Below, one piece after another: positions 12,071 to 58,628 of a stretch of 64,000 nt of DNA. The stretch spans positions 1,488,001 to 1,552,000 of the forward strand of contig CM102283.1 in assembly GCA_046563655.1 (NCBI GenBank). The letters are read 5' to 3'. The notes below the pieces were generated by a model. It did not search any database. It had not been told where the DNA came from and saw nothing but the letters and a program-made list of their open reading frames with translations. Numbering within the stretch: position 1 is the stretch's first letter; every line of letters begins with the position of its first letter. The stretch comes from Yuukianura sp. NJ FZ-2021. Taxonomy: Eukaryota. The translations under genes were made by a program, and so were the position numbers.

Positions 12071-12408
12071 GACCAATTCCTAAACACAGTCAATTCGTAA
12101 GCACGGTCAATTCGTAAGCAAATCTTTCCGCATGGTTATGTTTCCGTTCTGTAAGGTTAGGTTTTTAAGCTTTTAATTGAATCTAGATTATACTGTGTTA
12201 GGTTAGGCTAGGTTAGGCTTTTTAGGATATTTTTTCTTCAAAATTTTGAAATAGAAATAGGTTTTGCGAGGCTTACGAAAGCACTGCTTACGAATTGGGC
12301 TGCTTACGAATTGACCATGCTTATGAATTGACCGTGCTTACGAATTGTCGGCTTACGAAATTGAGCTTACGAATTGACTGTTTACGAATTTGAGCTTAGG
12401 AATTGACC
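12071..12408. repeat. Foldback/MITE-like element whose inverted arms are built of GCTTACGAATTGAC subrepeats
   Basis: GTCAATTCGTAAGC copies at about 12089-12119 face about 9 reverse-complement-like copies at about 12270-12408. The centre has GGTTAGG motifs. Confidence 0.6.
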
Positions 12409-12665
12409 TGGAACCAAGATTATATCGTTTTTTTTTAAGCAAGATTAGTAAATTTTAAAATAAACCAATAGAATCACTATTTTTCGAATCTGAGTTTCTA
12501 CCAATACTGAAACACTAGACTCAGTACAAGATTACTGTAAAGTTTTAATCCTAACACTGTTGTACCCATGGTGTATGTTGTTTTTTAATTTTTCTGTGCA
12601 TATTATATCCAAGGAAGTAGGGTAGTTTCTTGATACGTTCTTTTTACCCTTTAACTTGGTTTCAA

Positions 12666-15600
12666 TTACAGTAACTTCAGCTGTAAATTTGCCTTTTGGA
12701 TGTGTGTAATGATACTCTTGGGAAGAAGGCCAGAGTTGATAAATGTTGATGTTCCAAAGTAAAGTTCAAGTTGAGGTACAAAGGTATTGTACAGCCACAT
12801 AAAATAGTTTTTGTCTTCATTTGCAACAATTCCATCAACGTCCCAATATTTAGGTGGCATTACGGGTGATTGTGGTGAAGGTCGGTCCAAAAGTGTCGTG
12901 TAGCGATCACGCCAATGTGGAAGATTCGTTTCACGTCCAGCAATATATTCTTCCCAGGTCGGTGGTTGCATTGTGACAAACTGAATACCTGTACTTCCAT
13001 ATGATTTTTGCACTTTTTGTACTTGAATTGTGTGGCCTCCGATAGACTGGATTGATTCATCATGATCATCTTTAAAAGATTTGATCAAATCATCCCATTT
13101 CAGTTTGTCCATCAGTGGCATTTTTGTGAACAGATCAGTATCGTTTATCTGTTCATAAGTTCTGCGGAGTGCCAAAACATCAATGAATGGATCTTTTAGG
13201 CCAAGTCCACCCATTTCAAGCGGCCAGTAAATCCATGCGTCGAGTAAATCCGCTTCTTTTAAGGCTGCAAATTTACTTGTCAAAGCTCGTATAGGAGAAG
13301 TTTCCAGTGATCCAAATACTCCAGCATAAATTGAACGAAGTGAAGAAACAATTTGATCCAAATGGGCACGTCCAAAAATAAGAGCAGCTTTACCAAAATT
13401 ACGTACAAAAAATGTCATGTACTTGTTAAATATTTGAATCCATTCGAGCGTACATTCCGCCTTGGCAAGGAGACTTTTCATTTCGGCAAGAAATTTTTCA
13501 GTCGAGTTTTGATCAATTCGAAGCGTTCCTGTTGAATCTAGTACCAAATATCCCCAATGAATATTTCGTTGTGGTAAAGGAGATGGGCCTGGTACACTTG
13601 CATGTTGTTTTGGTTTTTTCGTTTTTTTTCCATGTTTCTTTGGAATTTCTGGAACTTCTGACCAAATTTTGACTGATCCACTTCGTTTCACATTGACCTT
13701 CAGCCCAACCATACTTCCAAATTCATTAAGTGTTTCCCATGTTTTGGTAACATGCGATTCCTCTTTACTCCAAAACCAAAATTCATCTGAAATTCGGTAA
13801 ATTTTCAACCCTTCACACTTTCGATTCACGATGGATTCAAGTACAAATAGCAAAGTTTCTCCAAAAAGTTTTGAAAGCGCGTGTGATGTAGGAACTCCGC
13901 GTAAGACTTCTTGCCCTGTTTCAGAATTTGTAAATTTCAAACTATGATGTAGGAAATTTTTGAAGAAATCAAGCCACTGAGTTGACACACCAAATTTTTC
14001 CATTGCTATAAGAATAGCTTCGTGTGTTAGTGAGTGACCGAATGTTTCCAATTGTGTTTGAACAAGAATCAAAGGTTTTTCTGGATACAATACTTGGTGA
14101 AGTCGAATTTCTGTGCTCAAAACATGCAAAAATGACTGCTTTGGGTCAATGTCTGGTTTTGGGCGAGGTGGAGCAGGTCGATAAGCTTTTGCTTTAAATG
14201 ATTTTGTTCGAAACTGTAAATTTTCTGTTTCATCAAAAGAAGCTGACGCCATCATTTGATAAGTTTGTCCAAAATCGTTAGTTTCTTCAGATTCAATTTG
14301 AACGAATTCGTCTGTTATTGGATTTTCTTGAGATTGCAGAGAATCAGGAAGAGCTGTTAGGAACATACTTCTGTGGTAACGATTTCGTTCGGATTCGATA
14401 GACGATTGGTTGTACGGTACACGAGTCCACATTTTAGAAGAATAAATTCGGAGAAAACGAGATTTAAAAAATGCGGCCCAACTTACTCCGATATACTGCA
14501 GAAAAAGAGCAGATAAGATATCTTCGTTTAAATATGCTCTGTATTCCCCGGCTAGCCCACGCCGCACATCAGCTGGATGAAATGTTGTTGCGTTTGGCCA
14601 ATCCCAACGATCCAAATTTATCATCCGACTTGTCAGAAGTGATGCAACTTCGGTTACCGTTTCATCATTTTGAGATAGTTCCCGAAGTGAAGATTTTTTA
14701 GTCTCAGGAAATAAATCTTCAGATAGTAGGCCTGCGATCAAATCAAGGTTCGTAAAGAAAAAAAAAACTTTTTCTACCTCAGACTGTCCAATAACTGGGG
14801 TTTTTCAGTTTTTTGCCAAAATTTTCAATAATGAAACCGGCTGAACTTCCGTTTCTATCACAATTTTTAACTTTTTTTAAACTTTTTTTTTACTCCTATG
14901 TGATTTGAAGTGTTCAAAGTTTGGGGAAAAAAATTGTTAAAATTTTTTTTGAAGCACGATTTTTGAAAACCCTGAGTTACTGGACAACCCATTGTAGGAA
15001 ATACACTTTGATTGTCAAGGAACCTTGCCTGTGATGCAGAGCTGGACATCATAGCTTGAGATACTATGGGATTCGACCTTTAAAAATTCCGATGATTCTT
15101 TGCGTATAGTTTTAACCAAGTTATCCACGTCAGTACTTTCACCAGCCGCAAAAAATTCTTTATCCAAGAATTTTTTAAATTCCGTAGGATTAAATTCATT
15201 TGAAGTCGGAGCAGTAAAAATAAGCTTTGAAATTTTAGCAATTGCTTCTTTTTTGGCTTTTGTTGTATCTTCCAATTCTGCATTACTGCGATCCAATTCT
15301 TCTTTTTCTTTTCTTCTTTCATCAACTTCAAGCCATTCTCCAATCATCGACGCAAAGTAAAATGAATATTGACATTTGCGTAGAGCGCGTTGAATTTCGA
15401 GTCGTATTTTAGTTATCCAGACAGTGAGAACATCAGATGTGAGAGAAGGATCATCATTTGAAAATTCAAGGACATCTTTTAAATTTTCAATTAAATTGGC
15501 ATCAATCGTTTCCTTGACGGGTGATGTTTTGACCGCATGGTAAAGACTTTCCAAGGTTTCACGCGCATGTTCAGAAGATGTGCCATTTGATTGCTTAAGA

Positions 15601-15828: not shown

Positions 15829-18560
15829 ACCTTAGCAATGTTTATAACAGTGTACGTGTAGCCCGACGTTTCTGCTACAAAGATATGTGATAGAAAAAAT
15901 GTCTCACCTAGGAGCGACAGGCAGGAAAAATAAGGCAAAAATGACGAAATTTAGTCATTTTTAGAATGCGCGGACTTCCCTTTTAGATTCAGTTGTGTAG
16001 TCGCTGAAGTACACCAGCAACTGACATTAATTTGTAAGAATTTACCAACTTTAATGCGCTAGGCGTATACTTCAAACATTTAATCGATTATTGTTCAAAG
16101 CGGTATGCAAATGTCTTCCTTGCGATTCTACAGTGTCCTATTGTTTGCAGACCTTGATTTAGATGTAAATATTTTACTGTCTAAATCCTTGCCCTTGACG
16201 TGCTTGGTAATTACCACGCCAAAGGTTTCAGAAAACCTTGAATTTAAAAAATTACTTCCACCCTTGCTGGAATTTAAATTTAAAAAACACGCTAGTTGAA
16301 TTATCTTATTTTAAAAAAATTAGTTTAACAAAGTAATTAGTTTAAATATAAAAGAATTAATAAAATGTTCAAAACGTTTTATTGTATTCCAAGTAAAGCG
16401 TTAACACTAACAGCCTGATTCAATACAAACCGAAACGAAATTAATTTTGTTTGTTGCTGGAATACGAAAAATATTCCAACCCGAATAAACGTAAATGTAA
16501 AAATATTTTCACATGTTAAATGTAACTGCACCAATTAAGTGCAGCTACTATTATGAAGGGAATCGCTTACTTACAACTTCGGCCATACATAACCCCCGTC
16601 TGCGATTGGGCGTGGCGTATGATACAGTGCAAGGGACCTAAAAACGTTACGGACGGACGGACGGACAAAGTCGTGTCAATAGTCTTCTTCAGCATGTAGG
16701 AACTCGTAATTTACGAGTCGTAAACTTGCGTTTCCCTAAAGTAAAAGGCTAACGAGGCAATCCGTGGCGCCGCTTAGCGGCGGCGTTCGCACTTACAGTA
16801 TGGCAATGGCAACTCTTGTATCCGATGTACCCACGGAGTGTAACCATTGCTCTCTGTATTTTTCATGTCAACTGATGGTATATTCGTAGTGGGTGGTTAC
16901 AAACACATGATAATGCAGATTTTTTAATTTTGTAACCGTAGGATTGTATTGTAACGATTAAGTGTGGTCATGGAAAGTAGCTGGACTATCGGGTTACAAT
17001 AGATTGACGTTTAGTTCACTCCTTCACTCACGCAGAGTGTAACTGTACAAGTCAGCAAGGTTTTTTTTGTGAATGATGATCATAACAACAAATATTGACT
17101 AAAAAATTGCATCCTGTTTCGTTTTCCTTCATCTGGCGCTTCTACTAGTCAATCGTTCTTGACATTTTGACGTCTAATCGTCGTCCGTCCATCTGAACTA
17201 TCTGTAAGGTAAATACCTGTCTTGAACTGGATTAAAGGCGCCTGACTCGCTGACTCAGAAAGAAGGTGTTCCTCATTCGTCTATGAATCGAATGTGTCTG
17301 GAAGAGATTTTGACTTCCATTTTCCTTTATTTTCAGTTGCATTAGCGGAGGATATTGCATACCTGACGAACCATGAACCCACAACCGGCGAACGTCAAGG
17401 AACTGAAGGTTGGGAGATTCTACAAATGTCAAGTCGGACAAGTAACGAGAGCTGGACAGCTGTTCATGCTTCTACATACTTCGGCAACTGAGGACATTGT
17501 AAGTTTACACCTATGATATGTTTATCCAAGATAAACTTTATAAACGTAATGAACGTGTTCGGGTTATCCCGTGATGATGTTGTAATGAACTTTGCTCATC
17601 GTTTTCAACTCCCTAGGATATGGAAATTCGAACCTGGACTCGCTTCTACTTGAATGAACCGAATATGAGTCGGAAGTTCAACCTTGATTGTTCACTTCGG
17701 CGCATGGTTGTGGTTGTTATTCGAGCTTCCTCAACCGTCTACCGGGGGCTACTGGTTAGCTTAGACATTGAATCACGAAAGGCTGTTCTGGATTGTGTCG
17801 ATTTGGGTGAAATAAGACAAGTTTCAATTGATCACTTGTATGAAGCAACGCCCGAAGTTGTAGCAACCAAGTGGAAGGTAATCTACGTTATTATTTTTAA
17901 GTCTGTCAACTGATGTATAGCTTATTGGATATGTTAAGTCAAACTAGGCTGGCTACCTTAGAAAGATGTAAGATGTAACTAAACCATTTTCTATTTTCAG
18001 ACGGTTCCCTGTGTGCTGGATGGATTGGCAATGTTTTTAGGAACCCACTTCATGGAGAAAGGACTTCAGCACTGCAGCTTTATTCAAACTTCTAAACAAC
18101 TTCGAATGACAGTGAAAGGAAAACTGGACTCTCATTTCGTCATTGTTTTGGAGTGCTTCTCGAATCCAAAGTCAGTTAAGAACGTTAACACTATGATCAA
18201 CGAGTTCCTCCAAGGTCCTCTTTTGGAAGGACTTAAGAACAACGAGGTTAGTTTCCGTAGTCAATTCTCAGTTTTTAGCTGCTACTCATAGTACTAACTT
18301 AAGCTTCATAACTATTTAGTTGCCATCGTAAAGTGAACTTACTTGTGTGTTTGAATTTAGAACTCCAGCGTCATGGTTTCTGAAGTTCGCGGAGATGGAA
18401 TGATATATTACTCTCAAGTTGCTGGCGTTCAAGATGACACGGCCATTACACTTATGGAGTCGTTTCTCAGTCGAGTCAGTTATCGCGTAATGCGACGTCA
18501 ACTGCCAGCAGTAACCCCTGCAACAGTGGACCTAAATGAAGTGTACTTGGCTCCATATGA

Positions 18561-18809
18561 TGCGGCAGACCGGGGATTCCGCTGTTGCTGAACTGACCTC
18601 TGACCTCGTTGGAGTGATGCACTACTCAATAAATTGACCTCAACTACTTGCTGGACTTGGTGTCCAGTGGTAATCTGCTTAGGAGATGTTCTTTATTTAA
18701 CATCCAGAGAAAGACTGACAAGCATCTACCTAATCTACCTTACGTTAGATTGTGTGTTACACCTGTTGTCCAGTGGGGGTGGGTGTGGGTGGTGTACCGT
18801 CCCGCTACA
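18561..18809 (-). repeat. 3' LTR
   Basis: Identical by inspection to 27526-27774; TG...CA termini; AATAAA on the element strand. Confidence 0.97.
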
Positions 18810-20900
18810 CATTCCACCCGCAAGAAGGGGCCTCCCGGGGGGTGGGGTGGGGGTCTTCTCCTGGAGTGGGGGGAGGGGTCCTTGGATTGGTCCTCGGTCA
18901 TCCTTCCGCTGCCTGGGAGTGGTGACGTGTCTGCACTGCTGGCGCTTGTATGGATGATGATGTGGTGCTTGAGTGGTATTGTGGTGCTTGTTATCTGGTT
19001 TTTCTTTGTCGTTTTTGTGACGTTTTTGCCGATACTCTTTGACTTTGTTGGCAATCTTTTGTTTTTTCCAATTGATGAAGTATGGATCGGTCGCCATAAT
19101 TTTGATTTTTCTTTCTTCGCATTCTTTGCGAAATTGAGTGTCCTTTCTGTCGTGAAATGGACAATTTGACTTTTGGTGACCTTTCAACCAACATCCGAAG
19201 CAAACGTTGGTTGGTTGATTTGGGTTTTGAACGATTTCTTGTAAATCGTTTTGGATGGTGACGAGAATATTTTCTCGCTGAACCGGAATTTCTGGGATTT
19301 TTGTCGGAACTGTAATTTCTACAGTTCTTTCTGAATTTGATGTGATCTCTGGAACTGGTTCTGGACCGGTTGAAGTTTCAGCATCAATTTGAATGTTGTT
19401 TGTAGAATTTGGAGTAATTGAAATTGGTTCATCAACTTCCATTGGTTGAATTTGTTGAGTCAAATTTGTTTCTGTGGTGGATGGAGCATTTTGTTGAAGT
19501 AAATCATTCGAAAATGATTCGATGTCTCCGTCCGCTGTGATTTCAATTTCTGGATTTTCTGGACGCGTAGTTATTGTCACGTTTCCGTTGCAGAATTCAA
19601 CGAGTGAATCAGTTGATTCTTCCGAGGAATGTCTCGTTCGATTCGATTGGCGGTTAGGAACGACGACTACAACGGATTTGATTTTTGGTGACGGAGGTTC
19701 TGGTATTTCCCATGGATTTGAATTTGCGTCATTTTGTCTTTTTTGTTGTTCTGTGAAGATTTGTAGGGTCTTCTGTGACATCCGCCTGGCAAATACACTA
19801 CCATCCAAGGATTTTGGTGGTAATTCAATTAGATCTTCTTTGGTTTTGTAATTGTTTGGAGCTTCGACCATCGCTATGAGTTTCTCTTTTGGACAGACAC
19901 ACTGTCCAGGAAGATCATGAAATCTTGCGATGTCTTCTCTCAGTATGAAAATTTCTTTGAGGATGTGATTTTGAATTCCATCCAAGTTGGCGGTTTTTGC
20001 GATGTCATCGAGTTTTTGAAATTTTGGTTGACCAATATTTGGAGTATGTTTTGGGTAACGAAAAGTGACTGATGTCCATTCATTTTCATATAACTTGAAA
20101 CATTTTCCTCCATGATCCATCTTGATTTTGTTCCATGCTCGGATGAGCAAATGGGAGTCAGATCTTGCGTATTGGATCAAATCTGCATGGAGTGGTCTGT
20201 TTCGAAAGTCAGCGGCTCTTAGATCTTTGTTGGTTGGTTCAACATTTGGAATGAGAGTGGAAATTACTTTCCAGTAATTTTCTTGTCGTTGACGTTCTGG
20301 TTCGTCTGGAGGTTGTGGGAACTTGTAATAGGCTCGCTGTAGGTCAATGATTCCGACGGGGAATATTTTGTAAAACAAGTTCAGTTTTTTGACATCTTCT
20401 TTAGGGTCGAATCCGATTTTGATAATGTTAGGATTTTCAAAGATTGTTTTCAGTTCTTGTATTTTTTCGGAAAATTGAAAAGGGCAGATCACGTAATCTT
20501 TTTCTTGTGTGGAGATTTGAATAAGTGTCGGGTAAGTATGACCAAAGTAAGCTCGATCTGTTCCGTCAGAAAATTCAATGTCGAATCCAATTTCTTCTTG
20601 AATTTTGAGGTCATCCAGCATCTTTTTGAATTCGGAATATTTTCCAGGGATGATAACTGGAGTCGTAGCTCTGTCATCCTTGATGCTTTGACCAGTTTTG
20701 TATGTGGACATTGATTCTGTTATGTGAAATTTGGTCATTTCGGCAAGTTTCGGATTTTGCTGTATGTCGTAGCCGTCCTTGTTTCTTTGGATACAGTAAT
20801 TTCGGAATCCTTGGAATTTCGGATTGTAGAATGGTCTGGTTTTGGCTTTTCCATATTTCTTTTCCATTTCCGCTTTCAGTTTTAGCCATGGAGTTGCCAT
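18735..20900 (-). CDS. Retrotransposon ORF3: Rrp6/EXOSC10/RNase D-like DEDDy 3'-5' exonuclease + HRDC + disordered linker + CCHC zinc knuckle (721 aa)
   Basis: ExoI IGFDIEF, LIQISTQEKDY, IFENPNIIKI, ExoII FDPKEDV, DFRNRPL, ExoIII YARSDSHLL. HRDC-like ILREDIARFHDLPGQCVCP. Knuckle CFGCWLKGHQKSNC. The stop lies inside the 3' LTR. Confidence 0.88.
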   Translation of the reverse strand: MATPWLKLKAEMEKKYGKAKTRPFYNPKFQGFRNYCIQRNKDGYDIQQNPKLAEMTKFHITESMSTYKTGQSIKDDRATTPVIIPGKYSEFKKMLDDLKIQEEIGFDIEFSDGTDRAYFGHTYPTLIQISTQEKDYVICPFQFSEKIQELKTIFENPNIIKIGFDPKEDVKKLNLFYKIFPVGIIDLQRAYYKFPQPPDEPERQRQENYWKVISTLIPNVEPTNKDLRAADFRNRPLHADLIQYARSDSHLLIRAWNKIKMDHGGKCFKLYENEWTSVTFRYPKHTPNIGQPKFQKLDDIAKTANLDGIQNHILKEIFILREDIARFHDLPGQCVCPKEKLIAMVEAPNNYKTKEDLIELPPKSLDGSVFARRMSQKTLQIFTEQQKRQNDANSNPWEIPEPPSPKIKSVVVVVPNRQSNRTRHSSEESTDSLVEFCNGNVTITTRPENPEIEITADGDIESFSNDLLQQNAPSTTETNLTQQIQPMEVDEPISITPNSTNNIQIDAETSTGPEPVPEITSNSERTVEITVPTKIPEIPVQRENILVTIQNDLQEIVQNPNQPTNVCFGCWLKGHQKSNCPFHDRKDTQFRKECEERKIKIMATDPYFINWKKQKIANKVKEYRQKRHKNDKEKPDNKHHNTTQAPHHHPYKRQQCRHVTTPRQRKDDRGPIQGPLPPLQEKTPTPPPGRPLLAGGMCSGTVHHPHPPPLDNRCNTQSNVR

Positions 20901-21005
20901 CTGAAATTGAGGAATTTAAAATTAATTAATCCTGGATTGTGATTTCTCACATTGATATGGTATTTGGAATTTAGAAATTTTGTGTTTTTGTTTCCGGCTT
21001 CGCGC

Positions 21006-24000
21006 TTAGCGGTGATAACCTGCGAGCGTGCGATAATTGACTCTTTGTTTTTGTCTAAGTCTTGGTAAGTTTTCAGATTCATCGTTCGACGGAACTGAAT
21101 CATTTTTCTTTTGATTAAATTTTTGTTTTATTTTTCGGACAAAATATTGTTTAATTTGGGAAACATGCCGTCTCCCTACATGAGAATTGTCATCAATTCT
21201 TACTATTTCGTAAGTAATTGGAGTGGCTTTACTGCCAATTTTGTATGGACCTTCCCATTTATGGGATAATTTTTGTGCAATCCCTTCATCCTTACTGGAT
21301 AGGATATGCGTTTTAATGAGGACGAAGTCTCCTTCATTAAATGTCACATCACGGTGACTTTTGTTATAATACATTCGGTTTTTCTCATGGGCTATTTCCA
21401 TGTTTGCTCTCACGTACTCAATTAATTCTTTAAGTTCATTTGGAACTTTTTGAGCGTGGTTTAAGTCAACCTGAGTTGGACTTTGTTGTAAATTTCTGTC
21501 AAATGGCAATGGAATTTGCCTTCCCAGATTCAATAATGCTGGTGTGACTTTTGTTGTTTCATTTACGACTGTGCGTAATGCTAGAGCGAATTTTTGAATG
21601 TTTTGGTCCCATTTGTGATGACTTTCTTCGATGTATGCTTGAATCATTGTTTTGATGCTTCTATTGGTTCTCTCAGATTGATTGGCTTGAGGATGGTACT
21701 CAGCAATCATTTTATGTTTGATTTTCCATTTTTCACATAAATCTGCGATTATGTTGGAAGTAAATTGAGGTCCATGGTCTGAGATTATTGTGTGTGGAGA
21801 TCCGAATCTGCAGAAGATTTGATCTTCCAGTATTTCTTCAGTTTTCTTTGCAGTTGCCGCTGTCATGGGAAAAAGTTCAACCCATTTTGACAGTTCGTCT
21901 AGAACGACGAGTAAATATTTGCTTTGTTTTCCGCCCGCACTTGTTGGAAATGGACCTTGATAATCAACATGTATTGTTCCGAATACTTCGGATGGCGGTT
22001 TTGCAAATCCTAATTCTCCATAGGGTTTCCTATTTGAGATTTTTACTTTTTGGCATTTGTCACAAGTTTTGACATATTCTGCAATTTCTCTGTTCATATT
22101 GTTCCAATAGCATCTTTGTTTGATTCTTTCTTGAGTTTTTGTTCTCCCGAAGTGTCCGGCTTCTGGGGAGTCATGGAATATTTCCATTATTTTTGTTTTC
22201 ATAGTTTCTGGAATTACTGGTACCATGGTTTTTTCTTGATTTTTGTTAGGATCCTTGTCATTTTTGGGTAATTTTGAGTTGACTGGCTGTGTCTGAGGTT
22301 CATGACTCCTCTCTTCAGTTGTCTTCTCTTGATTTTGATTTGGTTTTTGTGCCGTAATAACGGTCTTTGGATGGCTGCAATCTGGTTTGAAACAAATTGT
22401 TTCATGACAAATTTTTGATTTGACTTGAGTCAATTTTGGTGAAGTTGCAGTCCTTCCTTTGAATGGTTTGATTTTTCGGAACAAAACGTTTCTGTCGAAG
22501 ACATAATTACTCGTAATGCTTGGCCGAACATTCTTCGTAACTTTGAGTTCGTTTATGATTTTTTGAGTTTGTGGATCTTTTCGTTGTTCCGTTGAAATAT
22601 CTTGTAATGATGGAGTACAGTAGACAAGTAGAAATGTTGGTAATAAAATGTTGTCTCTGTCTTGGAGCATGTCTGGATCGTTTTGTGTTTCTGGAAGACT
22701 GGCTCTTGAGAGTGCGTCTGCAACTACGTTTTCGGATCCTTTTCTGAATCTGATGGTTGCGTTCCAGGATGTGATCTCGATTGCCCATTTTGTAAGTTTG
22801 GCTTTTTTGTTTTTCATGGAATTTAAGTAACTGACTGCCTTGTTGTCAGTTTCGATTATGAAGGGGTGTCCTTCAATAAATTCTCTGAATTTGTCGTATG
22901 CAAAGATTATGGCATAAAGCTCTTTCTCATGAATATGAGCGCTTCGTTCTGACTTTTTGAGTGATTTGCTTGCAAACATGATTGGTCTTTCTTTGCCGTC
23001 AATTTCTTGGACAAGAACTGCTCCGAGTCCATTTTCTGAGGCATCACATTGCATGATTATTGGTTTTGAGTAATCGATTGTTTTTAGAATGACATCTTCT
23101 GCCATTGCTCTTTTGATTTCTTGAAATGCATTTTCTTGTTCTTGACCCCATCGCCATTTTACGTTCTTTCTGAGAAGATGATGTAATGGTTCGGCTTTTG
23201 AACTAAAGTTTTTGATGAAGGTGGCGTACCATGCGCACATTCCATGGAATCGTAAAATGTCTTGTTTGCATTGTGGAGTTGGAAATTCCATTATGGCCTT
23301 GACTTTTGAAGGTTGTTTGGTAATTCCATCTTGGCCAACAACATGACCAATGTAATGGACTTCAGTTTGTGCCCAAACTGATTTGATTCTATTAATTGTT
23401 AATTTCGCTTCTTTGAGTCTTTCAAGTGCTTTTTCAAGGTCAATGTAATGTTGTTCCAAGGTTGGTGAGTAAATCAGGATGTCATCAACGAAAATTTTGA
23501 TGAAAACGTCAATGTAATCTTGGAAAACGATTCTCATCAATGAAGTAAATGTTTTTGGTGAATTTTTCAATCCCATCGGCATCACTAGGAATTCGTAATG
23601 GCCGTCTTGTGTGATAAATGCGGTTTTCTCAATGCTGTTCTCGTGCATTGGAATTTGCCAAAATCCTGAGTTCATGTCGAGGACAGTGTACCAGTAGTTT
23701 GGCGGGATTGTTCGCAGGATGGAGTTGCAATTGTCCATTGGAGCTGCGTTTTTCTTCATACTTGCGTTAAGTTTGATGTAATTGATGCAGAGCCTGTACT
23801 TGTCTGAGTTTTTCTTTTTCTCTAACACCACTGGTGCTGAGTAAGGGGATCTGGACTGTCTCACCATTCCTTTTTGAATTAATTGCTCGATTTCTTGGTT
23901 GAGAACGTTTCTTAAGTTTGGAGCATATTTGTAAGGTCGGAGTTGAATTGGTCCGCCTTCTGTTTCTATTTCATGTCTGGTAAGATCTGTTCTGCCATTC

Positions 24001-24566
24001 AGATTGTCGTCTCTGGCGACTTCTGGGAATTTTTGAATTATTTCTAGAATTCTAGCTTCTTTTTTGTCTAATGGAGTTTTTCCATTTGGTTGTTCGTAAG
24101 TAAGGCTGAACAGAATAGCATTCTGTCGATTTTTGAATGAGAATATTGTTGGAAGTTTGTCTTCTGGTTTTGACTTAAACCAAAACTTTTCTCCTGAGAC
24201 ATCGAGAATGATTTCATGTTTCTTCATGACGTCTTTGCCAATGATAAGCGGAAATGGAAGGGTTTCCATTACGTATGCATTGGTGATTATGAGTTTGTCC
24301 AGGATCTTGAATTGGAGTCGAACTGATCCAATTGGTTGAATTTTTTGATTGTTTGCAATAATTAAAGTGAGATTATTGCTAGAGTTGAAATTCTTTTGAA
24401 TTTTCTTGGCTACTCTTTTGTGGATTAGAGTATAATCGCTTCCAGTGTCGAAAATGGCTTCGATTTCTGGTGTTTTTGATAAGATCAATGATGTTGCACC
24501 TTGGGATTTTTGAAATTTGAGGATTGGGAGAAGATAAGATGGTGCTGGGAGCTTATCTTCCCTCAA
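21006..24566 (-). CDS. pol: Pol polyprotein (aspartic protease, RT, RNase H, integrase)
   Basis: Protease FDTGS; RT VLDMNSGFWQI, MPMGLKNSP, FVDD; RNase H CDAS, EKELYA, TDNKA; integrase HDSPEAGH..CDKC, HVDY, SDHG, SERTN. No in-frame stops. Confidence 0.97.
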   Translation of the reverse strand: MREDKLPAPSYLLPILKFQKSQGATSLILSKTPEIEAIFDTGSDYTLIHKRVAKKIQKNFNSSNNLTLIIANNQKIQPIGSVRLQFKILDKLIITNAYVMETLPFPLIIGKDVMKKHEIILDVSGEKFWFKSKPEDKLPTIFSFKNRQNAILFSLTYEQPNGKTPLDKKEARILEIIQKFPEVARDDNLNGRTDLTRHEIETEGGPIQLRPYKYAPNLRNVLNQEIEQLIQKGMVRQSRSPYSAPVVLEKKKNSDKYRLCINYIKLNASMKKNAAPMDNCNSILRTIPPNYWYTVLDMNSGFWQIPMHENSIEKTAFITQDGHYEFLVMPMGLKNSPKTFTSLMRIVFQDYIDVFIKIFVDDILIYSPTLEQHYIDLEKALERLKEAKLTINRIKSVWAQTEVHYIGHVVGQDGITKQPSKVKAIMEFPTPQCKQDILRFHGMCAWYATFIKNFSSKAEPLHHLLRKNVKWRWGQEQENAFQEIKRAMAEDVILKTIDYSKPIIMQCDASENGLGAVLVQEIDGKERPIMFASKSLKKSERSAHIHEKELYAIIFAYDKFREFIEGHPFIIETDNKAVSYLNSMKNKKAKLTKWAIEITSWNATIRFRKGSENVVADALSRASLPETQNDPDMLQDRDNILLPTFLLVYCTPSLQDISTEQRKDPQTQKIINELKVTKNVRPSITSNYVFDRNVLFRKIKPFKGRTATSPKLTQVKSKICHETICFKPDCSHPKTVITAQKPNQNQEKTTEERSHEPQTQPVNSKLPKNDKDPNKNQEKTMVPVIPETMKTKIMEIFHDSPEAGHFGRTKTQERIKQRCYWNNMNREIAEYVKTCDKCQKVKISNRKPYGELGFAKPPSEVFGTIHVDYQGPFPTSAGGKQSKYLLVVLDELSKWVELFPMTAATAKKTEEILEDQIFCRFGSPHTIISDHGPQFTSNIIADLCEKWKIKHKMIAEYHPQANQSERTNRSIKTMIQAYIEESHHKWDQNIQKFALALRTVVNETTKVTPALLNLGRQIPLPFDRNLQQSPTQVDLNHAQKVPNELKELIEYVRANMEIAHEKNRMYYNKSHRDVTFNEGDFVLIKTHILSSKDEGIAQKLSHKWEGPYKIGSKATPITYEIVRIDDNSHVGRRHVSQIKQYFVRKIKQKFNQKKNDSVPSNDESENLPRLRQKQRVNYRTLAGYHR

Positions 24567-26203
24567 CAGTTTAACTGTTGGTTTGAGCTTTGAGTTTGTT
24601 GATTTTGACTCATGTTGGAGTCGTAAGTGTCGTACTCTTCATAGTACTCTTCCTGAGTAACTAGAGCTGTGCCTTGTTTGTTGGGACATTGATTTGTCGA
24701 GTGTCCGCGGCCTCTGCATTTTCTGCATTGAATGTTGTCAGAATTGCTGGCTGTGGCTTGATTATTTGAATTGTTTTGATTTTCTGAGGTTCCACGATAA
24801 TTGCTGTGGTAATTTGGGTCGAAATTTTTTCCTCTGTAATTGGAACGACGTCCACGGTAATTTCCTCTTTCGCCTCGTGTTGATCCTCGGTTGCCCCGAT
24901 TGGATCGACCTCTGTCATTTCCTCTTTGGGAATTTTCATTTTGAGGATTTTCCGTTTCTTTTTGTTCTTGGGTTTCAGCATTTTCATTGCGAGTGTTGTA
25001 GTAAGTTCGACCTCTTCCTCTGTATCGTCCCTTGTAGCTACCTCTTCCACGGGAATTGGTTTTTCGGGAATTGGAATTTGAATTTGAATCGTCTACTTGG
25101 TCTTTGTTTGAATTATTTTGACCTTTTTGGAATTTTCGTTCTTCGACGTTGCTCACTGCTGGAGCGACAATTGGTGGTAGACGATCTTTGCTCTTGGTTG
25201 CTTTGTCTTGTGCTGTCAAGTTGTCATGGACTGTGCGACAGTCATCAAATAAGGCTTGTGGAGAGTCGTACTCCTTGGTTCCCAGCATGGTTCTGATTCT
25301 TGGATACAGTGAGTTTTGAACTCTTAAGAGTGACTGAGCAGTGGTTTCATTTGGGAAACACAATTTTGAGAGTCTGAGCATTTCGTAAATATGAACTTCT
25401 GTGGGTTCATGAAGCAATTGAATTTTGTTTGTAAGGTATTTGACTCTGTTTCTGTGTTCGACTGGATTGTCGAATCTTCTGAGAAATTCAATTTTGAATC
25501 CGTTCCAAGTGTCGGTTTCATTATGGATGTGTTCCCACCATGCATGTGTTTCTTGGGGTAAAATGGATTTTACCATGTACAGCCATTGTTGGGGTGGAAA
25601 GCCTTGACTTGTAAAATATCGTTCTGCGTCCTTGAGAAACGATTCTGCTGTTGATTTTTTTGGATTAAATTTCGGAGCTGGAATTTGTGAATTGACTGAA
25701 GTCAATCTCACTGTTTGAAGTGCCTCCGTCAGCGTTTCAAGTGTGACGAGTTGACTGGGTCCAGCAATAGACGTATTAGAGCGTCTGTCAATTTGATTGG
25801 TTGCTGGGGCTCCTCGAACTAATGACGGTTGTCTAGATTCGTCTTGTGCTTTTGTTGCTCGGGCTCTGGCTTCTTTTGCTTGGTCCGCAGCATTAATTAC
25901 AACATGGAACATTTGTGTTAATTGGGCCATTTGTTCGTCTGAAAAGACTTGACCTTGGATTGGGTTGCTGCTTGGTCCTGGATTTGGATTTGGACGTGCC
26001 GGATTTAGGTTGGGAGCTGGCAAACCGACATCAAATAAACGTTGAAGGTCTTCTTCGAATTCTGTTTCTTGTTGATCAATTTGCTGTTGATCTAATTGTT
26101 GTTGATTTTGGTCTGTCGCCATTCTTCTTTGTCTTCCGCTTCGAGTGGTATCGGCAATTTCTGGATCGAGCGGTAGCAGATTTCTAAGCTCACGTTTACT
26201 CAT
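24563..26203 (-). CDS. gag: Gag (capsid-like region, RG-rich linker, CCHC knuckle)
   Basis: 546-aa ORF upstream of pol with CRKCRGRGHSTNQC. Pol is in the -1 frame at G-TTA-AAC just before the gag stop. Confidence 0.9.
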   Translation of the reverse strand: MSKRELRNLLPLDPEIADTTRSGRQRRMATDQNQQQLDQQQIDQQETEFEEDLQRLFDVGLPAPNLNPARPNPNPGPSSNPIQGQVFSDEQMAQLTQMFHVVINAADQAKEARARATKAQDESRQPSLVRGAPATNQIDRRSNTSIAGPSQLVTLETLTEALQTVRLTSVNSQIPAPKFNPKKSTAESFLKDAERYFTSQGFPPQQWLYMVKSILPQETHAWWEHIHNETDTWNGFKIEFLRRFDNPVEHRNRVKYLTNKIQLLHEPTEVHIYEMLRLSKLCFPNETTAQSLLRVQNSLYPRIRTMLGTKEYDSPQALFDDCRTVHDNLTAQDKATKSKDRLPPIVAPAVSNVEERKFQKGQNNSNKDQVDDSNSNSNSRKTNSRGRGSYKGRYRGRGRTYYNTRNENAETQEQKETENPQNENSQRGNDRGRSNRGNRGSTRGERGNYRGRRSNYRGKNFDPNYHSNYRGTSENQNNSNNQATASNSDNIQCRKCRGRGHSTNQCPNKQGTALVTQEEYYEEYDTYDSNMSQNQQTQSSNQQLNC

Positions 26204-26222
26204 TCAGCTTAGTTCTGCTGTA

Positions 26223-26808
26223 GGTTACTCTACTGAGTTACCTTAGGTTACCCTACTGGGTTACCTTTCGTTGGTTACCCTACTGGGTTACCATTCGTTG
26301 GTTACTCTACTGAGTTACCATGGAGGTTACCCTACTGGGTTACCTTAGTTTAGGTTACTCTACTAAGTTACCTTGAGGTTACCCTACTGGGTTACCTTTG
26401 AGGTTACCCTACTGGGTTACCTTAGTTAGGTTACTCTACTGAGTTACCTTGGAGGTTACACTACTGTGTTACCTTTGAGGTTACACTACTGTGTTACCTT
26501 GAGGTTACCCTACTGGGTTACCTATTTGTTAGGTTACTCTACTGAGTTACCTTGAGGTTACCCTACTGGGTTACCTTGGTTAGGTTACTCTACTGAGTTA
26601 CCTTGTAGGTTACACTACTGTGTTACCTTTGAGGTTACACTACTGCGTTACCTTGAGGTTACACTACTGTGTTACCTTTGAGGTTACACTACTGCGTTAC
26701 CTTGAGGTTACCCTACTGGGTTACCTTTTGTTAGGTTACTCTACTGAGTTACCTTAGAGGTTACACTACTGTGTTACCTTGATTCTTAGGTTGCCCTACT
26801 GGGCTACC
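26223..26808 (-). repeat. Tandem array of 23 covarying 20-nt hairpins in the element 5' leader
   Basis: Unit on + strand is GGTTAC(CC/TC/AC)TACT(GG/GA/GT)GTTACC with about 3-10 nt spacers. A 24th unit sits at 27178-27197. Confidence 0.95.
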
Positions 26809-27500
26809 TTTTAACGTAATACTTTGATTTTACGTTGTTTTTTAATAATTTTTTGTAAAAGGACTTTAATTTTTTTCTTTAATAGAGCGTAGGATTACGT
26901 TTTTGCGTTATTCCGTTTTGAATTTTATTTTTAATTTGTGTAATTTGTTTAATTTTTTCCAAATTTACTTTTTAAATTTGTTTGTAAAAGGAATTGTGCA
27001 ATTGAAAGTGAACGAAGAGACGCAGGATGTCTACTTCTACGTCCGCACTGGCTGCGTGTGTTTATGTTTACTTGTGCTTTGCTTTCGCTTTTTTTTTTTT
27101 GCACTGCAATTCCAGTGGAATTGCAAAAAAAGTTAATCTGAACTGTCCGTTATGTTTTTGTTGTCTCGTCTTCTGTCGGTTACTCTACTGAGTTACCGTT
27201 ATGAAAGGAGATAATGAGATATGCAAATCGACTGTCTTTAACGGGCCGTTGACTGTGAAGGACTCTATTTTTTTCTCTTCTTTTCCGGACTTTTTCACAA
27301 AATGGCGGCTGCCACGCTAACGGTGATTTTGCCGCTTCTGACCTTTGAGGTCGCGATTTCAATTCGATTTCCGGTTCATGTCGGTCATTGGTTATGCTGC
27401 CTTTGAATGTTTTTTGAATTTGGTATGTGTACCTTTGTTTTTTGCCTTTTGAAGTGATGATTTGTGGCTGCTTCTGACTGCGATTCCTTTGGAAACGATG

Positions 27501-27515
27501 TTCGGCTGGCTACCA
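27501..27515 (-). promoter_or_regulatory. Candidate primer-binding site
   Basis: TGGTAGCCAGCCGAA begins 10 nt inside the 5' LTR boundary. The cognate tRNA is not identified. Confidence 0.4.
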
Positions 27516-27525
27516 AGTCGTCACG

Positions 27526-27774
27526 TGCGGCAGACCGGGGATTCCGCTGTTGCTGAACTGACCTCTGACCTCGTTGGAGTGATGCACTACTCAATAAATT
27601 GACCTCAACTACTTGCTGGACTTGGTGTCCAGTGGTAATCTGCTTAGGAGATGTTCTTTATTTAACATCCAGAGAAAGACTGACAAGCATCTACCTAATC
27701 TACCTTACGTTAGATTGTGTGTTACACCTGTTGTCCAGTGGGGGTGGGTGTGGGTGGTGTACCGTCCCGCTACA
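27526..27774 (-). repeat. 5' LTR
   Basis: Identical to 18561-18809. Confidence 0.97.
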
Positions 27775-29537
27775 ATGAGGACGGTGTACTTTACCGTGCA
27801 AAAATTCTTGAGAAGGACGAAAAACGCGTCGAGGTAGAATACATTGACTACGGGAACCGGGAAGTTCTTCCATACACGGCTGTGTTTCAGGCTTCACTTG
27901 TGGACGTTACAATGGCATCATTCCCACCATTGGTACGTGGAATCCCTTATTATTCAATTCTCATAGTCATAACTTTTTTCTTTAAAAAAGTGAACTTGTT
28001 TTGTTTCAGGCTAAAAAAGCGTATCTCCGCTGGATCCAGGAGTTCAATGACCTGGAGAAGGCCCAGGACATTCTTACTTCCAAAACATGGAAAGTTGAGG
28101 TACGCAAATCGTTCAGAAACGGTTGTCCAATGGTTTGTCTCTTTGATCCGGCTGACTCAAGCGTCGTCAACAAGAAGTTGATTCTGGACGGCTTTGCCAA
28201 AAAGTCAGTTACTTCAAACTGAACCACCAATTTTTGAAAACATTGAACCATGTAGCTGCACAAGTTTTTGTTTTTTTTTTTTCTCAGTTGTTTCTTTGTT
28301 TATCTTTTTCGTTGTTGATAGATTACTCACTTGTGCACTACAGGCTATTTTTCAACTTCTTACCCAATTTTAACAAATTGGTTGTAATGTTTACATAAAA
28401 CATATAATAAAATATGTATTTAAAACTACAATAATTGTGTGAAGTAATTACTTAAGTTTGATTTAGGAACTTCGTCCGATGAAGAAGTTTAGTACTTTCA
28501 CCGTTTCACCTCCAACATTGAATTATTTCTCGCCATTTTTTAGTGGAGTAGGGAATGTCATAGGAGAAAGTGGCGGGAAAGTTAATTTAATTTTGGCTAC
28601 TCACTTTCCCAACCTCGAACTCCTTTCTGTCCTAAACTTGTCTCTGTCACTCCCAAGTCCCTGCTGAACTAATCTAAAAGTTAAGAGTTCATCTTCCTCA
28701 TTACTTCAACTTAACTTTAGGTAGCATAACCTACGAAATTTTGAACAAACCTAACCCTTGAAGTTTAAAATTTCAACCTTACTGGCCTCAAATATAAGCT
28801 GAAGTTGCACAATTTACGTTAGGTTAACGTAACCGAAAGATTTCGTAGATTGAGTAGATTTCATAATGAATTTCTCATACCTAGTAGAAAAGGAAAGTTA
28901 GGCAATAATGTTGAAAATAGAAAATTGAATTTCTTTTGTTTCTACTTTCTCCTTCTGGGCCGCACAACCAATAAAACTTTGCCCAATAATCTCTTCATCC
29001 CTTGCCCTTGCACAACTTTTGCACAACTTTGAACTTATACTGCCACTGCTCCAAATTAAATCTCCGCAGGCACTTCTGCCATGAAAAGTCTAACTTTTTT
29101 ATTTCCTTCCTCCGAAGTATTTCAATTAAAATTTCAAATTTAAATTTGTTTTTGTTTTTTAACACTCCACTAACCCCTGCCCTCCTCACTGACTCTTGAG
29201 CATTGACATTTTTCTTAAATAGAGCAGAAAGAAAGGAAAAACTTAAAAAAGTTGTTCCTTTTCGAAACACAATAGCTGCCTATGATACCGGCCTGTTCAA
29301 CTTTTTAATTAAATTTTCCTCCGAAGTTTTTTTTTTCGAGAACAACGAAACTAACCTGATGTCTAGCAAAGAAGTTTAGTCCGGAAGACTGTTTCAAAAT
29401 TCCGATTTTTTTTAGGAATAATAATAATTCAAAACGTGTGGATGGTATTTACAATTAACTTTCTAACAACTTTACATAAATTGTTATTATTATTTTTTAC
29501 AATTATTATTGATCTCTGATATAGTGAACTATAGGGC

Positions 29538-30122
29538 TTATTCCGGATTCCATCCACCTCCTCCTCCGCCATGATGCGACCCTCCTCCTCCTCCTCCAGG
29601 GTGGCTAGGGCGATGATTGCCACCTTCCCATCCTCCGCCTGGATGGTTGCCACCTCCTCCGCCTGGATGATGGTTGCCACCTTCCCAGCCTCCGCCTGGA
29701 TGATGGTTGCCACCTTCCCATCCTCCGCCGGGATGATGGTTGCCACCTTCCCATCCTCCGCCGGGATGATGGTTGCCACCTTCCCATCCTCCGCCTGGAT
29801 AATGGTTGCCACCTTCACCGCCAGGTTTGTGGTTGCCACCATCCCATCCTCCTCCCCCAGGATGATGGTTGCCACCCTCCCATCCTCTACCGCGAACTAG
29901 ACCCCAGTACTCGCGCGTGAGTCCTTGCTGTTCTTCGGTTTCCCCAATTTGGAGGATTTTCTTGGTATCATGTCCAGCGTCAATTTCAAATTCCAACCCA
30001 ACAACGTTTCCGTCCTTAACGTTGAAGGTAATTCCGTCCAAGTTCCCTACTTCCTCTTCCACTGGTACTCCATGACACACCAATATCAAAGTAGCAAACG
30101 TCAATAACGCAAAAAGCTTCAT
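29538..30122 (-). CDS. Secreted Gly/His/Trp-rich repeat protein
   Basis: Signal peptide MKLFALLTFATLILVCHG, acidic pro-like region, then about 8 GGWEGGNHHPGG-type repeats. Single exon. Confidence 0.75.
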   Translation of the reverse strand: MKLFALLTFATLILVCHGVPVEEEVGNLDGITFNVKDGNVVGLEFEIDAGHDTKKILQIGETEEQQGLTREYWGLVRGRGWEGGNHHPGGGGWDGGNHKPGGEGGNHYPGGGWEGGNHHPGGGWEGGNHHPGGGWEGGNHHPGGGWEGGNHHPGGGGGNHPGGGWEGGNHRPSHPGGGGGGSHHGGGGGGWNPE

Positions 30123-57862: not shown

Positions 57863-58628
57863 CTAGGTGGCTTTCTCAACTACTGGCACGGCGTTTGGGC
57901 CTCCAGCGAGTATGATTTTGCCAACCTTCATTGAGTTCGACATGGTACAATCGGCAGCTTGTTTGACAGCGGCAAGCATCTTCATTGGATTCTGGAAGCA
58001 AGACGTTCAAAATATAATATATTTTTATAATTATTTTAATTGTATTTTAATTACAATTAATTCATTCTATGAATTAATTACCATAAGGTCAGAAAGTCCT
58101 CCACCTCCAAAAACGGGGACTCGGAGACATTCGCATTCGTACTGGGGACCATCATAGTCGCAGCATCCTGGAGCGCCTCCTTGAAGTCCACAAGCTTTAA
58201 AGCAGCCAAGGGGTCCTGTGAACCACCCTCTTTCACACGTAACCTGTACAAAGGTCAAAGGTCATTGACCTTTCGCTCAAGGGTCATAGACCCTCCGCTC
58301 AAGGATCATTGGCTTTTCGCTCAAAGGTCATTGACCTTTCGCTCAAGGGTTAATTACCTTTCGCTCAAGGCTCTTTCACTTTTCGCTCAAAGGTTAAGTA
58401 CCTTTCGCTCATGGATCATTGACCTTTCGCTTATGGGTCATTGACCTTTTGCTAGAAATTAAAACTTGACGTTGGTCAAGGACATACCGGTTGCAAAGGT
58501 GGCAGCTCTTCTGCTGCTGCTGGCTCTTCTTCGTCATCTTCGTATTCGTCGTCATCTGCTGCATCTTCGGCAAAAACGACTGCACAAACGCCGAAGAGAA
58601 ACATCAGCAAAACAAGATTTCGTTTCAT
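57863..58628 (-). CDS. Secreted defensin-like (CS-alpha/beta) peptide precursor, 3 exons
   Basis: Signal peptide, acidic propeptide, C..CFKAC..GCC..CEC core, and a third exon NPMKMLAAVKQAADCTMSNSMKVGKIILAGGPNAVPVVEKAT*. Eight Cys in the mature part. Confidence 0.65.
58255..58450. repeat. Intronic minisatellite, about 21-22 bp unit AAGGTCATTGACCTTTCGCTC
   Basis: About 8-9 degenerate copies visible. Confidence 0.85.

Follow-up and report, generated by a model that had tools for sequence, protein, structure and literature searches.

A tandem array of compensated hairpins, as predicted by folding, in the leader of a recently inserted Ty3/gypsy retrotransposon of Yuukianura sp. NJ FZ-2021

We analyzed a stretch of 64,000 nucleotides (nt) from the genome of Yuukianura sp. 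NJ FZ-2021 (NCBI GenBank assembly GCA_046563655.1, contig CM102283.1, positions 1,488,001 to 1,552,000 of the forward strand); this stretch is referred to below as the window, and positions are numbered from its first letter. On its minus strand lies an intact, recently inserted Ty3/gypsy long terminal repeat (LTR) retrotransposon of 9,214 bp, and the leader of this element carries 24 near-identical copies of a 20-nt unit, 23 of them in tandem and the last one isolated, each predicted to fold into the same small hairpin. The hairpins vary at paired positions only, in such a way that pairing is kept in every copy. An initial annotation of the window, made from the letters alone and called the first-pass annotation here, had placed such an array in a retroelement leader just upstream of gag, and this location is borne out by the LTRs and by the gag and pol matches that we obtained.

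The carrier retrotransposon and its leader

The features of the element are given below in the order in which they would be read on a minus-strand transcript.

27775-27778, minus strand: upstream copy of the target-site duplication TCAT, 4 nt, one copy on the outer side of each LTR
27526-27774, minus strand: 5' LTR, 249 bp, with TG...CA ends
27198-27525, minus strand: proximal leader, presumed from its position just after the LTR to hold the primer-binding region
27178-27197, minus strand: isolated 24th hairpin unit, of the U-A type with a C-G flanking pair, present in the predicted minimum-energy fold with a mean pair probability of 0.99
26809-27177, minus strand: A-rich part of the leader that separates the isolated unit from the array, delimited from the sequence
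26223-26808, minus strand: hairpin array, 23 units of 20 nt with spacers of 3-10 nt and a period of 23-30 nt
26204-26222, minus strand: linker of 19 nt leading from the final hairpin to the gag ATG
24563-26203, minus strand: gag, 546 amino acids (aa), with an Arc-like capsid domain, an RG-rich tract, and one CCHC knuckle
21006-24638, minus strand: pol, encoding protease (PR), reverse transcriptase (RT), RNase H, and integrase (IN), with a reading frame that is open from 24638 and lies at -1 with respect to gag
18735-20900, minus strand: third open reading frame (ORF3), 721 aa, with a 3'-5' exonuclease domain and a C-terminal CCHC knuckle
18561-18809, minus strand: 3' LTR, 249 bp, 100% identical to the 5' LTR
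18557-18560, minus strand: downstream copy of the target-site duplication TCAT, from the alignment of the flanks

An LTR pair with TG...CA ends and a target-site duplication, and gag followed by pol in the order PR-RT-RNase H-IN, identify the carrier as a Ty3/gypsy element. Its unoccupied insertion site was found in run X2, one of three runs (X1-X3, from two organisms) that contain the element and cover the array: a contig joins position 18556 to 27775, skipping 9,218 nt, exactly the length of the element plus one copy of the duplication, with 4 letters shared at the junction. Because this contig joins both flanks, the insertion is polymorphic and recent, and the empty site together with the identical LTRs marks a very recent event that is missing from some haplotype or individual.

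Profile searches with the gag product gave zf-CCHC_3 at an E of 7.7e-4 and Arc_capsid_dom at an E of 0.009, neither of which reaches its curated cut-off, and residues 187-307 of the protein aligned with Arc capsid-domain chains at an E of 8.9e-4. A fold search with its low-confidence structural model (pLDDT 61.5) returned Arc/dArc capsid domains at all of the top ranks, with E values of 0.011 and weaker, and the protein ends in the RG-rich tract and the single knuckle. The domains RVT_1, RT_RNaseH, Integrase_H2C2, and rve were recognized in pol, as was an aspartyl protease. ORF3, the final 75 nt of which lie inside the 3' LTR, was matched by DNA_pol_A_exo1 over residues 87-260 (E 1.6e-20), and the acidic and tyrosine residues of its exonuclease motifs look intact by eye.

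The leader is 1,322 nt long and 40% A, rising to 43% in the part upstream of the array. It contains four upstream ATGs, each opening a frame of 4-9 codons. No tRNA genes, against which a primer-binding site might be compared, were found in the window. At about 27089-27131 (minus strand), a perfect palindrome of 9 bp stands between a run of 7 T and a run of 12 A and could form a long extended stem. The linker between the array and the gag ATG, which begins at 26203, is 19 nt long and not 20 nt, as had first been stated.

Constancy and compensated variation of the hairpin unit

A scan of the window for the pattern GGTAAC-N-C-AGTA-G-N-GTAACC, in which 3 mismatches at most were allowed, found 24 occurrences, every one of them on the minus strand, compared with 0.00 expected from 100 shuffles. 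The 20-nt unit folds into an eight-pair stem with an A.A mismatch within it and an AGUA loop on top; the bases just outside the unit also pair and form a ninth stem position, for a total of nine positions including the mismatch, with unpaired spacers beyond. TRF (Tandem Repeats Finder) reported a basic period of 25 for the array and higher-order periods of 77, 154, and 179. Since stop codons stand in all three frames of every unit (unit positions 3, 11, and 16), the array cannot be coding. The unit can also be read as two direct copies of GTAAC (5 nt) about 12-13 bp apart, and it begins with a word resembling a 5' splice site, so that the unit might conceivably mimic a splice site or branch site.

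Every variable site of the hairpin falls in a paired column. Pair 7/14 is C-G in 9 of the 24 units, U-A in 8, A-U in 5, and the wobble G.U in 2, and it is unpaired in none; pair 5/16 is G-C in place of A-U in a single unit (26789-26808), pair 8/13 is U.G in another (26353-26372), and at the flanking pair (-1/+1) 21 units have A-U, 2 have U-A, and 1 has C-G. The first-pass annotation had correctly described one stem pair in three Watson-Crick versions, a second pair exchanged from A-T to G-C in the unit at 26789, and a flanking pair that also varies, and it had called the loop and the mismatch invariant: both the AGUA loop and the A.A mismatch (positions 4/17) are indeed kept in all 24 units, with none of the 144 cells in these positions changed. 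The 24 units comprise only 6 distinct 20-mers, compared with 16 distinct spacers among 23, a count that includes, as the last of these 3- to 10-nt spacers, a 12-nt segment that extends through part of the linker to the start of gag.

When identical units were merged into 12 distinct rows, all 96 pair cells formed a standard pair, and three of the eight pairs had changes on both sides. The covariation score and the percentage paired were reached by none of 500 shuffles, and when the 3' partner was slid by 1-3 columns, pairing fell from 100% to between 17 and 43% and the covariation almost disappeared. Chimeric, mismatched combinations of arms were not seen among the 24 units. The local folding energy of the array was -36 kcal/mol per 100 nt, compared with -15 for shuffled versions, which is the largest excess among 10 tandem arrays so examined, 3 of them from the window and 7 from distant relatives of the element.

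A second array in the window, at 58255-58452, provided a control. It consists of nine 22-nt units with a palindromic core, and its pairing (81%) is no better than that of its own shuffles, with no double changes; a palindromic repeat does not keep its pairing automatically. As an observation in its own right, the units of this array (plus strand) decay without compensatory change and look like a row of palindromic protein-binding sites, the core of which we take to resemble an inverted pair of nuclear-receptor half-sites separated by a single base.

The units are not independent of one another, because unit type follows spacer type and blocks of 126 nt are duplicated within the array. Two such blocks are 96% identical and differ in five letters, of which two lie in spacers, one is an A/G difference at position 7 that gives a wobble pair, and the remaining two make up a double change at positions 7 and 14 of a single unit that could be either a fresh compensation or a short conversion from another unit. 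Counted as events, the variation amounts to about five independent double changes (pair 7/14, with its three Watson-Crick versions, accounts for two of them, pair 5/16 for one, and the flanking pair for two) and two independent single changes, both of which led to wobble pairs; there were no disruptive changes. The covariation that had been reported across the units thus stands as compensatory and beyond the controls, with some five events behind it and not one per unit. Correction of quasi-palindromes by template switching could yield compensated changes without selection, but the same process should have turned the A.A mismatch into a pair as well, and this mismatch is intact throughout. Taken as a whole, this pattern makes it probable that the hairpin is under constraint as a folded single strand.

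The contigs of runs X1-X3 collapse repeats and offer no more than hints about variation between copies of the array. In the nine rows listed, the indels that affect the array are confined to spacers and the edges of units. Read depth is higher over the array bins, but repeated words collapse in the contigs. One contig each in X1 and X2 leaves the gag-proximal end of the array at 26221 and continues into sequence unlike the gag start of the window; these loose ends hint at a diverged subfamily or at a second downstream context for the array.

Folding, strand, and candidate functions

A stretch of 1,376 nt, consisting of the sense leader (27525-26204) and the first 54 nt of gag, was folded computationally. 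In the predicted minimum-energy structure, all 24 hairpins are present, with pair probabilities of 0.55-0.99 that are lowest where neighboring units are of cross-compatible types; taken singly, the hairpins have predicted energies of -5.7 to -11.8 kcal/mol. We considered whether the alternation of unit types might guard against misfolding and dropped the idea, as cross-compatible neighbors occur at 6 of 22 junctions, compared with about 6.8 expected.

Only three units discriminate between the strands. These carry the non-Watson-Crick variants and, as the first-pass annotation had pointed out, they form G.U pairs on the minus (sense) strand and A.C mismatches on the plus (antisense) strand, where they cost 1.2-2.7 kcal/mol. 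The strand bias that had been read from them has the direction claimed. The three units, however, represent two independent events, because both units with G.U at pair 7/14 sit in a duplicated block, and the case that they make for the sense strand is weak. Selection on RNA structure in the transcript of the element, as originally proposed, therefore holds in so far as the hairpins fold and their pairing has been kept, and is weakly supported in so far as it specifies the sense strand.

Rfam 15 covariance models, that of the iron-responsive element included, gave no match in 26204-27525 at E values up to 1; the loop of the iron-responsive element is superficially similar to that of the unit. 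The sole Rfam hit (E 0.058) falls inside gag, far below its gathering score. A link to the yeast RNase III Rnt1p, raised earlier on account of the AGNN loops that this enzyme recognizes, was not supported. The AGUA loop agrees with AGNN in all 24 units, as a match of sequence only; Rnt1p cuts 14-16 bp below the loop, a duplex length that a stem of nine positions does not supply, and the nearest named relatives of pol among the 120 matches listed are from arthropods, not yeasts.

Our best single guess, to which we assign a probability of roughly 0.4, is that the array is a multivalent platform on the sense RNA for the Gag protein of the element itself. We favor Gag because of the position of the array, the exposed G in each loop, the multivalency, and the adjacency to the start of gag. 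Retroviral packaging signals lie between the LTR and gag, and an exposed loop G in leader stem-loops can be bound by the zinc knuckle of Gag. The array would share with these packaging and dimerization (Psi) stem-loops its position between the primer-binding region and gag and, if the predicted fold is correct, stem-loops with an exposed G, and it differs from them in that they are single copies of different stem-loops and not one hairpin repeated 24 times. The MS2 coat-protein operator, which has been engineered into 24-copy arrays, and the Xist A-repeat illustrate how small hairpins, or rows of hairpins on flexible linkers, recruit many copies of one protein; in hairpins of this type the tetraloop is fixed and one adenine of the stem is left unpaired. 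What the array may have in common with these two systems is the working principle only: the proteins recruited there are a phage coat protein or silencing factors of mammals, the sequences are unrelated to the array, and we do not claim membership in either class.

The array would on this account be a cis-acting element of the genomic RNA, in which 24 near-identical hairpins are spaced by A/C-rich, G-poor linkers. The constant parts (the AGUA loop with the C-G pair that closes it, the A.A mismatch located four pairs farther down, and the GGU/ACC base of the stem) would be the likely contacts for one RNA-binding protein, and the variable pairs would need only to pair. That partner would most likely be Gag, with its Arc-like capsid domain, RG-rich tract, and single CCHC knuckle, to which each loop would offer one exposed G; as it oligomerized, Gag would gain a high-avidity platform by which to select, and perhaps to dimerize, the RNA of the element for packaging. 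Bound Gag could, in addition, repress translation of gag, given that 19 nt separate the array from the gag AUG, and in this way switch the RNA from translation to packaging. We infer that RNA and not DNA is the active form, that the sense strand is the one that acts, that Gag is the partner, and that such a switch exists. The fuller proposal, in which a natural cassette of 24 sites nucleates a capsid protein on its own RNA and also acts as a translation-to-packaging switch, is more tentative, with the odds running against it; such a cassette would be the retrotransposon counterpart of the phage coat-protein operator, iterated for avidity.

Several points weigh against a Gag platform. To our knowledge, the packaging signals described for retroelements are single, heterogeneous stem-loops and not 24-fold iterations of one. 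The same hairpin was not found elsewhere in the element (0 outside the array, with 0.43 expected), and upstream ATGs are no more than weakly depleted in the leader (2 observed versus 5.1 expected, with 6.4% of shuffles as low). The antisense fold of the array is predicted to be more stable than the sense fold (-257.6 versus -235.3 kcal/mol), and the two wobble events that favor the sense strand would agree with each other roughly 1 time in 4 by chance. The compensated types have spread by duplication and possibly by whole-unit conversion, with only about five independent double changes involved, and no relative with such an array was recovered, hence there is no covariation across species to draw on. 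We infer, moreover, the transcription of the array, its strand, and any splicing of it. Finally, tandem arrays in the untranslated regions of LTR elements are common and, in the part of the literature available to us, are often deemed hypervariable by-products (PMC7004042).

The same structural evidence would serve another role at the RNA level, whether as a platform for a host RNA-binding protein (in export, stability, or localization or as an anti-silencing decoy), as a docking site for ORF3, or as a regulator of scanning or reinitiation, and to this group of explanations we allow an appreciable minority chance. ORF3, with its CCHC knuckle and exonuclease domain, would be a possible partner, and the stops in all three frames of each unit, together with the four short upstream frames, are what a scanned leader might contain; against these stand the lack of anything pointing to a host factor or of any matching Rfam family, and hairpins that are individually too weak, at the energies given above, to block scanning. 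The source of small RNAs that had been suggested earlier is disfavored by the nine-position stems, which are too short for Dicer- or Drosha-type processing. An explanation without function, which we consider unlikely, is that the array is a by-product of repeat turnover, in which a hairpin-prone unit was amplified by slippage or by template switching during reverse transcription and a few compensated variants arose and were spread by duplication and whole-unit conversion. The higher-order periods, the tie between unit type and spacer type, the differences in array structure among the contigs of X1-X3, and the presence of tandem arrays in non-coding parts of distant relatives all accord with such turnover, and the change of unit type from one duplicated block to the other might reflect a short conversion tract. 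In plants, the 3' untranslated regions of Ogre (Tat/Ogre) elements contain hypervariable arrays, which seed satellite DNA and which the available part of the report treats as products of aberrant strand transfer (PMC7004042). These arrays are, like ours, short tandem arrays within an LTR element whose monomer length and copy number vary between copies; they differ in lying in the 3' untranslated region, and structural constraint is unmentioned in that part of the report (PMC7004042), whereas here the hairpin is frozen and the spacers drift. The array thus agrees with TE (transposable element)-internal hypervariable repeats in being short, non-coding, and variable between copies and departs from them in the absence of free monomer drift. 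Turnover leaves unexplained the 144 unchanged loop and mismatch cells and the lack of a single unpaired cell when spacers in the same blocks carry substitutions and indels; mismatched chimeric arms are absent, and the control palindromic array decays without compensation. Homogenization at the DNA level had been named beforehand as grounds for abandoning an RNA-level interpretation, and it is true that whole-unit conversion can move a compensated pair; the A.A mismatch, which template-switch correction should have fixed and which was never corrected in 24 of 24 units, is not accounted for.

An array that works as double-stranded DNA, with sites for a host DNA-binding protein that make up an enhancer, an insulator, or a site for the nucleation of silencing, is improbable in our view. 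Its closest precedent is the gypsy insulator of Drosophila, with 12 Su(Hw) sites in 340 bp of 5' untranslated region; as described in the available part of that report, the region that separates gag from the 5' LTR of this Ty3/gypsy element contains short tandem units with variable A/T-rich spacers and a period of about 25-28 bp (PMC2374998), as it does here. The two direct GTAAC copies in each unit and the protein-binding appearance of the array at 58255-58452 would suit a function of this kind. The Su(Hw) array is nevertheless duplex DNA bound by a zinc-finger protein, with units that are not hairpins, and binding to a duplex gives no reason for the free positions 7/14, 5/16, and -1/+1 to stay complementary between the arms. 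The 12-bp Su(Hw) consensus has 11 near-matches in the window, which is the number expected by chance, and none of these is in 26223-27197; nor did we recognize in the unit, from recall and not from a database test, any known DNA motif.

Should the array prove to be a platform for Gag, it would offer an unusually simple system for study, with a constant loop and mismatch, a freely covarying pair, and no need for more than one 22-nt RNA and one protein domain, in a field where the choice of its own RNA by Gag is understood for very few LTR retrotransposons; another possible use would be as a multivalent RNA tag of natural origin. Should it instead act as DNA or be a by-product, the lesson is one of caution: compensatory changes in tandem arrays must be counted as events and not as units, because duplication can spread such a change inside an array.

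Relatives, precedents, and neighboring repeats

The array belongs to a known class, that of tandem arrays inside the untranslated regions of LTR elements, and within this class it is a real and unusually clean example seen at one locus. Full-text searching of the published literature gave no pertinent description of a retrotransposon leader with an array of stem-loops or of covarying units. The gene content of the carrier recalls the Juno and Vesta LTR families of bdelloid rotifers, in which gag and pol are accompanied by a third ORF that encodes a DEDDy-type 3'-5' exonuclease (PMC5408684). The carrier shares the gag, pol, and exonuclease ORF3 arrangement; members of these families also encode a dUTPase according to the available part of that report, and no dUTPase hit was obtained in the carrier. 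The main text on these families does not mention repeats in the leader, and the terms tandem, repeats, leader, UTR, and hairpin are all absent from it (PMC5408684).

Searches for the unit pattern in viral contigs and for a two-unit pattern in genome contigs gave no matches. The two-unit pattern was matched at two loci in metagenome contigs (L001 and L002), both of which were rejected as unrelated simple repeats of a shorter word; the former has no ORF of at least 150 aa. No relatives of gag or ORF3 were detected in viral contigs, and a word-indexed protein search with gag and with residues 60-420 of ORF3 found none within the length ranges searched. For pol, 358 related proteins were found, the best of them on metagenome contigs at 53-54% identity, and the named relatives are from arthropods and plants; none among the 120 matches listed bears the name of a rotifer. 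An alignment of the window pol with 9 of the 120 listed hits recovered 17 viral and 47 genome-contig loci, all of them distant (24-37% identity) and none with a comparable array. Several of these distant relatives have tandem arrays in their non-coding parts (e.g., L031, L051, L058, and L060); the array of L058 was considered as a counterpart and set aside, being degenerate and not in a clear leader. The 47 contigs with Ty3/gypsy pol relatives (L020-L066; 24-37% identity) come from bacterial or archaeal genome bins and most likely represent eukaryotic contamination of those bins.

Two further repeats in the window lie outside the element. About eight copies of a 15- to 17-nt tandem repeat occupy 12284-12410, just downstream (on the minus strand) of an ORF of 652 aa (12666-14624) that has a weak RVT_1 match (E 3.8e-4); the 3' end of another retroelement, distinct from the carrier, may lie here. 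Just beyond the carrier, at 29598-29915, some seven to nine copies of a 33-nt repeat lie inside overlapping ORFs (29429-30122); this repeat looks coding on the minus strand and is rich in Gly, His, and Pro.

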